The notes below the pieces were generated by a model. That model saw nothing but the letters and a program-made list of their open reading frames with translations, was not told where the DNA came from and did no database searches. 64,000 bases of DNA. Source: Escherichia coli (GTDB taxonomy: Bacteria; Pseudomonadota; Gammaproteobacteria; Enterobacterales; Enterobacteriaceae). The stretch lies in NCBI RefSeq assembly GCF_003334785.1, contig NZ_QOWV01000002.1; one strand, given 5' to 3'. Made by a program: the position numbers and the translations under genes. This document shows, piece by piece, positions 46,412 through 46,531 of this stretch; positions within the stretch are counted from its first letter, which is position 1, and every line of letters begins with the position of its first letter.

Positions 46412-46448
46412 GATAATAATTCTTAGTATTAATTCGGCAATCTGATTC

Positions 46449-46483
46449 TACTCCCCCCCAGTACCTGATACTACCCCCCAGTA
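46449..46483. promoter_or_regulatory. RcnR operator sites in the divergent rcnA-rcnR promoter region
   Basis: Two copies of TACT-(C/G)6-7-AGTA (tactcccccccagta and tactaccccccagta), the pattern I recall for RcnR binding. Confidence 0.75.
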
Positions 46484-46531
46484 GATTAATAGTGCTATGA
46501 TTTTTCATATTCTTGTTAACCAGGTGTTGCC

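Follow-up and report, generated by a model that had tools for sequence, protein, structure and literature searches.

A tandem RcnR operator between the divergent genes rcnA and rcnR of Escherichia coli, with length variation in one of its C tracts

The RcnR operator is a well-studied model of DNA-shape reading by the all-helical repressors of the CsoR/RcnR family. Two papers describe TACT-G6-N-AGTA as a tandem RcnR operator and credit it to Iwig and Chivers 2009 and Blaha 2011 (PMC7055735; PMC7105576). In a third paper, which sums up the primary studies, it is classed as a tandem type 1 operator with 1:1 stoichiometry per site, type 1 being defined by an unbroken G/C tract with 6–9 bp between AT-rich inverted arms; the same paper reports footprinting with minor-groove contacts of RcnR at the TACT and AGTA arms, and ascribes to the unbroken G/C tract an A-form character that is read as shape (PMC3902906). 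For Salmonella RcnR, binding data at the rcnA promoter were fitted to a model with two tetramers on each DNA, and its affinity for DNA falls at least 90-fold with metal (PMC5709419). An isolated operator behind a foreign promoter suffices for Co-responsive, RcnR-dependent control (PMC7105576), and the operator is already in synthetic-biology use as a cobalt-inducible part.

The copper-sensing CsoR type 2 operators of Streptomyces lividans and B. subtilis share with this system the repressor fold and the logic of inducer-driven release, and their AT-rich, GTA-type dyad arms also flank G/C tracts that are partly shape-read (PMC3902906). However, type 2 operators have two short G/C tracts 2–4 bases apart and arms separated by about 11 bp, and bind two tetramers at each site, whereas RcnR sites have one unbroken tract, 7 bp between the arms, one tetramer per site and a tandem pair (PMC3902906). 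A likeness of another kind is to the phase-variable homopolymer promoters of Neisseria (porA, opc) and Bordetella (fim), in which a G/C homopolymer likewise lies between −35 and −10 and one-base length alleles occur in the population.

In the window, by which we mean the whole 64,000-nucleotide stretch of E. coli DNA that was analysed, the 120-bp intergenic region at 46412–46531 is the gap between two divergent genes, rcnA on the minus strand and rcnR on the plus strand. The rcnA gene (45587–46411, start codon at 46411), annotated as such in RefSeq, encodes a Ni/Co efflux pump of 274 aa with a His-rich loop (NCBIfam NF007454, 557 bits). The rcnR gene (46532–46804, start codon at 46532) encodes a Ni(II)/Co(II)-responsive repressor of the CsoR/RcnR family with 90 aa, which scores 197 bits on the NCBIfam RcnR equivalog NF011613 (cut-off 138) and matches Pfam PF02583 with E = 3.9e-21. 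Its translation contains His3, Cys35, His60 and His64, the H-C-H-H signature that is diagnostic in separating RcnR from copper-sensing CsoR and from FrmR (PMC11672702), as well as the R14-A-S-K17 (RASK) motif noted for RcnR (PMC3902906). On the same strand as rcnA and 3' of it lies rcnB (45030–45368), the accessory periplasmic subunit by RefSeq annotation, for which the profile search gave no NCBIfam model match. The order rcnB-rcnA/rcnR-riboswitch-thiM is the one annotated in K-12 MG1655, and many E. coli chromosomes, that of K-12 MG1655 among them, match the 2.1 kb surrounding the sites with 100% identity. The riboswitch is a TPP riboswitch (RF00059, 71 bits) at 46896–46992 on the plus strand, between rcnR and thiM (47027–47815); it is the RNA-family match nearest to the rcnA–rcnR intergenic region, inside which none was found.

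An earlier note on this DNA, made from the sequence alone, had pointed to two C/G-tract sites between the divergent efflux pump and repressor genes and had likened them to the RcnR operator, and both points were borne out. Site 1, proximal to rcnA, is TACTCCCCCCCAGTA on the plus strand at 46449–46463 (TACT-C7-AGTA, with its C7 homopolymer at 46453–46459), which reads TACT-GGGGGG-G-AGTA on the rcnA strand. Site 2, proximal to rcnR, is TACTACCCCCCAGTA on the plus strand at 46469–46483 (TACT-A-C6-AGTA, with its C6 homopolymer at 46474–46479), which reads TACT-GGGGGG-T-AGTA on the rcnA strand. Both are therefore exact copies of TACT-G6-N-AGTA on the rcnA strand. The pattern that had been proposed for them, TACT-(C/G)6-7-AGTA, describes the C7 of site 1 but not site 2, where an A precedes the C6. 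Likewise, a separation of about 20 bp is correct as the distance from centre to centre (or start to start) but not as a gap, which is the 5-bp linker CCTGA at 46464–46468; this linker sets the 20-bp period, and only its last A is constrained in sequence. The coordinates that had been given, 46412–46531, are those of the whole intergenic region, whereas the pair itself spans 46449–46483 only.

Within the window the pair is distinctive. TACT-N7-AGTA, searched on both strands of the 64 kb, occurs at these two sites only, against 0.19 expected, and 3 of 100 shuffles reached two matches; TACT-N-C6-AGTA with up to two mismatches again gave only the same two sites, against 0.10 expected, and no shuffle out of 100 reached two. 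The window shows no excess of C or G runs of at least six bases (11, against 20.6 expected), and the C tracts are thus specific to the operator sites. Both sites fit the type 1 definition of RcnR, with no mismatch to TACT-G6-N-AGTA and 7 bp between the arms, and the two copies stand in tandem inside the divergent intergenic region, beside a cognate rcnR with the full H-C-H-H set and overlapping the core promoters. The 181 bp centred on the intergenic gap is 100% identical to K-12 MG1655, with the same two sites, flanking genes and published start sites, and no difference from the K-12 operator was found. These sites are the published tandem RcnR operator pair, already known and textbook knowledge; recognising it here adds nothing new beyond descriptive details of tract length, conservation and −10 overlap.

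To place the sites relative to transcription, the start sites in the genome-wide table of Kim et al. 2012 (Table S1; PMC3415461) were mapped onto the window. The main rcnA start falls at 46438 on the minus strand (K-12 coordinate 2183912; 25 reads; 27-nt leader), an upstream rcnA start at 46459 on the same strand, inside site 1 (K-12 coordinate 2183891; 12 reads; 48-nt leader), and the rcnR start at 46509 on the plus strand (K-12 coordinate 2183841; 11 reads; 23-nt leader). Relative to the main rcnA start, site 1 lies at −25 to −11 and site 2 at −45 to −31, so that the pair occupies −45 to −11; relative to the rcnR start, site 1 lies at −60 to −46 and site 2 at −40 to −26, with the pair at −60 to −26. 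From spacing and conservation, we infer that TAGAAT (46450–46445, minus strand), 6 nt 5' of the start at 46438, is the −10 element of the main rcnA promoter; the hexamer opens with the two bases that close site 1. The upstream rcnA start is preceded by a −10-like TAGTAT (46473–46468, minus strand), to which site 2 contributes its AGTA arm. For rcnR, the putative element, assigned on the same grounds, is an extended −10, TGcTATGAT (46493–46501, plus strand), 7 nt 5' of the start and 9 bp downstream of site 2, and this promoter is probably of the extended −10 type without a usable −35. Judged from the sequence, the AGTA arm of each site forms part of a −10-like hexamer. A consensus scan had offered two other candidates, TTGCCG/TATTAT for rcnA, with its end at 46413, and for rcnR a promoter that overlaps the ATG; both misfit the published starts and are not conserved, and were rejected.

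We consider it very probable (roughly 95%) that the two sites form the tandem operator of a tetrameric, all-helical RcnR that is released by metal and controls rcnA-rcnB and rcnR, and no contradicting evidence was found in this analysis. Our own grounds for the operator are the motif, its uniqueness in the window, the identity to K-12, the conservation and the position relative to the published starts, while binding, one tetramer per site, minor-groove and shape readout, and metal-induced release are taken from the literature. In the metal-free state, one RcnR tetramer would sit on each 15-bp site and contact the inverted TACT and AGTA arms, and the G/C tract between the arms would give an A-like DNA shape that is read indirectly. 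Two bound tetramers would cover the rcnA promoter core completely and the rcnR promoter only in its upstream half, and could thereby block RNA polymerase strongly at rcnAB and more weakly at rcnR, so that repression of the pump would be tight and autoregulation milder. On binding of Ni(II) or Co(II) through ligands that include His3, Cys35, His60 and His64, DNA affinity would fall, after which rcnA-rcnB and rcnR would be transcribed. Iwig and Chivers are reported to have found in 2009 that the contacts of RcnR extend to about 50 bp of flanking DNA, which it wraps. The title of their paper (J Mol Biol 2009), as cited in PMC7055735, contains the word 'wrapping'. Since a 2024 review cites no RcnR-DNA structure (PMC11672702), the readout mechanism is a model.

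The earlier note had also described the C/G runs as potential slipped-strand sites and had proposed a comparison of tract length across strains. We carried this out by counting exact matches to native and edited 67–71-mers in 5,426 complete E. coli genomes. The native 70-mer, with C7 in site 1, was found in 4,393 of the 5,426 and represents the K-12-type majority allele (C7/C6). Site 1 had C6 in 118 genomes and C8 in 98, both counted on the exact haplotype, and C9 in at least one (strain 88COLEC). The tract of site 2 was far less variable: C5 occurred in 17 genomes on the exact haplotype (36 matches when other changes are included) and C7 in 32 (shifted query). A low-complexity filter masks C7 runs, with the result that the site-2 C5 query matched only 36 genomes; through the same masking, the genomes matched by the site-1 C6 query outnumbered those of the native query by 134, and no inference is drawn from this surplus. 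As a control we used a C7 run in the coding sequence of yehI (28959–28965), where C7, C6 and C8 were found in 279, 2 and 0 genomes. The variant fraction at site 1, 4.7% on the common haplotype, exceeded the 0.7% at this control (Fisher p = 4.6e-4), a comparison that is indicative only, the control being small (281 genomes) and drawn from a different strain subset. It also exceeded the 0.4% of site-2 C5 (Fisher p = 2e-44), the site-2 fraction rising to about 1% once the 32 C7 genomes are added. The control gene itself (yehI, 28418–32050, minus strand; DUF4132, 1210 aa) varies far more between genomes than the rcn operator does: only 279 of 4,918 matching genomes have the exact 70-mer around its C7.

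One reading of these counts is that slippage of the C7 run serves as a contingency (phase-variation) switch, in which the rcnA promoter spacer and the geometry of site 1 change and efflux often flips on or off. The run does lie in the classic position for such a switch, between the putative −10 at 46450–46445 and the −35 position of the main rcnA promoter, and C6, C8 and C9 together are more frequent than variants at either the control or the C6 of site 2. However, seven bases are short for a switch in a species proficient in mismatch repair; phase-variable homopolymer tracts typically have nine or more. Moreover, the tract is exactly C7 in about 95% of the haplotype genomes and in nearly all of the 80 species described below, so that one length is kept across genera, and its documented role is that of part of a repressor site. 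Both variant groups that we examined are stable within their lineages and appear to be fixed there, rather than mixed as in phase-variable promoters; their isolates come from different countries and laboratories. Three O121 isolates, from California, Saskatchewan and Alberta, carry C8 together with rcnA allele WP_000134592.1, and three isolates carry C6 together with rcnA allele WP_000134647.1, two of them labelled O111 (one from California, one with no country given) and the third being the bovine strain E2863 from Japan. Given that each group of three isolates shares one rcnA allele, the C8 and C6 groups look like inherited alleles rather than switching. Other tract variants were sporadic, and some of the variants are probably assembly errors: at least one C8 assembly, BE2-5, has an rcnA annotated as frameshifted, which suggests a homopolymer sequencing or assembly error. 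The statistical support from yehI also carries the limits given above. We saw no sign of rapid switching among the tract counts of the 5,426 complete genomes, and in the literature searched, which was mostly outside subscription journals, nothing relevant was found on slippage or variable tract length at the rcn operator. A switch is highly improbable. The remark on slippage holds insofar as one-base variants of the C7 occur in about 5% of genomes, above the coding C7 control, but the variant groups examined look inherited. Seen as part of the RcnR operator, the C7 run of site 1 is a mild indel hotspot that tolerates one base more or less and is held at C7 across genera. The one-base difference of the longer C run in a few E. 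coli lineages is the only new detail.

Given that the tract lies inside both the operator and the promoter spacer, length alleles may alter RcnR binding or rcnA promoter strength. It is conceivable, though we hold it only tentatively and think it rather doubtful, that C8, C6, the rare C9 and three-site alleles are real regulatory variants with a heritably different set-point of Ni/Co efflux. If so, each allele would change both the half-site spacing of an RcnR site and the spacer of the rcnA promoter. The one-base tract alleles are found repeatedly in isolates of two serogroups associated with Shiga toxin and, should they shift the set-point, would offer natural material for testing how much spacing RcnR tolerates, a matter of specialist interest only. 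The three-site form was found in E. coli N47 (NZ_CM165890.1), a clinical isolate from CSF, in which a 20-bp tandem duplication, CCTGATACTACCCCCCAGTA, yields three RcnR sites; partial alignments of the duplication type came from at most five genomes.

Conservation was assessed in 80 loci, obtained by taking one RcnR-bearing genome per species and ranging from Escherichia, Citrobacter and Salmonella through Rahnella, Hafnia, Erwinia, Edwardsiella and Morganella to Vibrio europaeus. Site 1 was present upstream of rcnR in 78 of the 80 loci and was invariant in a 20-species alignment, and the exact 20-bp tandem geometry was found in 65. In these 65 species, anchored on site 1, site 2 carried 1.9 bits per column, against 0.95 for the linker and 0.4–0.5 for the flanks. 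From Escherichia to Vibrio, then, the site pair is almost invariant, while linker and flanks drift. The base written as N in the published motif is not free: throughout the anchored set, site 1 has C at this position and site 2 has A (plus strand). Only one site is present in Erwinia psidii, Edwardsiella anguillarum and one Enterobacter, and in Morganella the second site has decayed; given such species with one site or a degenerate second one, the system can do without a second site. In Kosakonia and Phytobacter, a 20-bp insertion brings a third, imperfect site (AACT-C7-AGTT). Further invariant positions emerged from a gapped alignment of 20 genera, and these match the −10 and extended −10 elements. 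Within TAGAAT, TA...T is conserved, with the T at 46445 the same in all 20 species; within TGcTATGAT, TG-n-TA...T is invariant or almost so across the 20 species.

This conservation bears on the possibility that the TACT...AGTA repeats are kept mainly as promoter elements (TAGAAT and TAGTAT) and not primarily as repressor sites. Both published rcnA starts do lie 6–8 nt 3' of a hexamer on an AGTA arm, and the T that completes TAGAAT is as constant as stated above. Promoter function, however, leaves the invariance of the distal TACT arms and of the unbroken C6–7 runs unexplained, as well as the repetition of the dyad at a fixed 20 bp; published binding data give these bases to RcnR, RcnR footprints or EMSA on the isolated 35-bp element are already in the literature, and the isolated operator brings RcnR and Co control to an unrelated promoter (PMC7105576). 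We regard promoter function as the main reason for the repeats as an even more remote prospect than the switch. The promoter and repressor-site roles coexist, as an overlap and not as alternatives. It is similarly improbable that the sites are shared with, or mainly used by, the CsoR-family paralogue FrmR, a formaldehyde sensor that recognises C-tract dyads: FrmR is a close relative (the RcnR of the window scores 76.5 bits on the FrmR model, under that model's cut-off) and effector specificity is easily switched between the two (PMC11672702), but the gene next to the sites encodes an RcnR equivalog in which all of the H-C-H-H ligands are present, the operator co-occurs with RcnR in 78 of the 80 loci across genera and also on plasmids, and action of FrmR at rcnA was not found in the literature searched.

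Several further observations concern rcnA and its neighbourhood. The His-rich loop of RcnA is encoded at about 45940–46040 on the minus strand. The length of the coding sequence varies in E. coli, being 825 bp here and in most strains and 834 bp in PCN033; a 12-bp variable repeat is described in Salmonella rcnA (PMC2658671). In some strains IS421 is inserted within rcnA. A Fur-box-like 7-1-7 dyad, TGATAATAATTCTTA, lies at 46411–46425 and overlaps the rcnA start codon and leader; it has two mismatches to TGATAATNATTATCA, and its cross-genus consensus is CATGAGAATnATTCTTAG. The gene belongs to the E. coli Fur-2 iModulon (PMC10164565). Given that Fur-box-like matches with up to three mismatches are not rare in the window (8, against 3.0 expected), the dyad is only a lead towards possible Fur control.

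In part of the population, the intergenic region appears to be missing or disrupted. Of the 5,426 complete E. coli genomes, 64 gave no blastn match to 46380–46560, which covers the rcnA–rcnR intergenic region, and all but one of these match part of the 2.1-kb locus; presumably, the promoter/operator region is deleted or disrupted in them. In Escherichia whittamii Sa2BVA5, the rcnA coding sequence joins the start codon of rcnR directly, and a deletion appears to have removed the 5' end of rcnA together with the entire operator/promoter region.

The module also occurs on plasmids. Plasmid p21AR0133A carries a diverged rcnR-operator-rcnA module beside pcoS, at 2119–2927, with about 82% identity over 110 aligned bp; both operator 15-mers are unchanged, the linker is AAATA against CCTGA in the window, and rcnA is broken into two pieces. 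The plasmid form of the module is found at 99% identity or higher, with both operator 15-mers intact, on 411 plasmids, mostly conjugative, with hosts in Enterobacter, Salmonella, Klebsiella, Citrobacter and Escherichia; of the 412 PLSDB plasmids that carry the module, 388 are predicted to be conjugative. On large plasmids, the rcnR-operator-rcnA module adjoins the pco copper-resistance genes.
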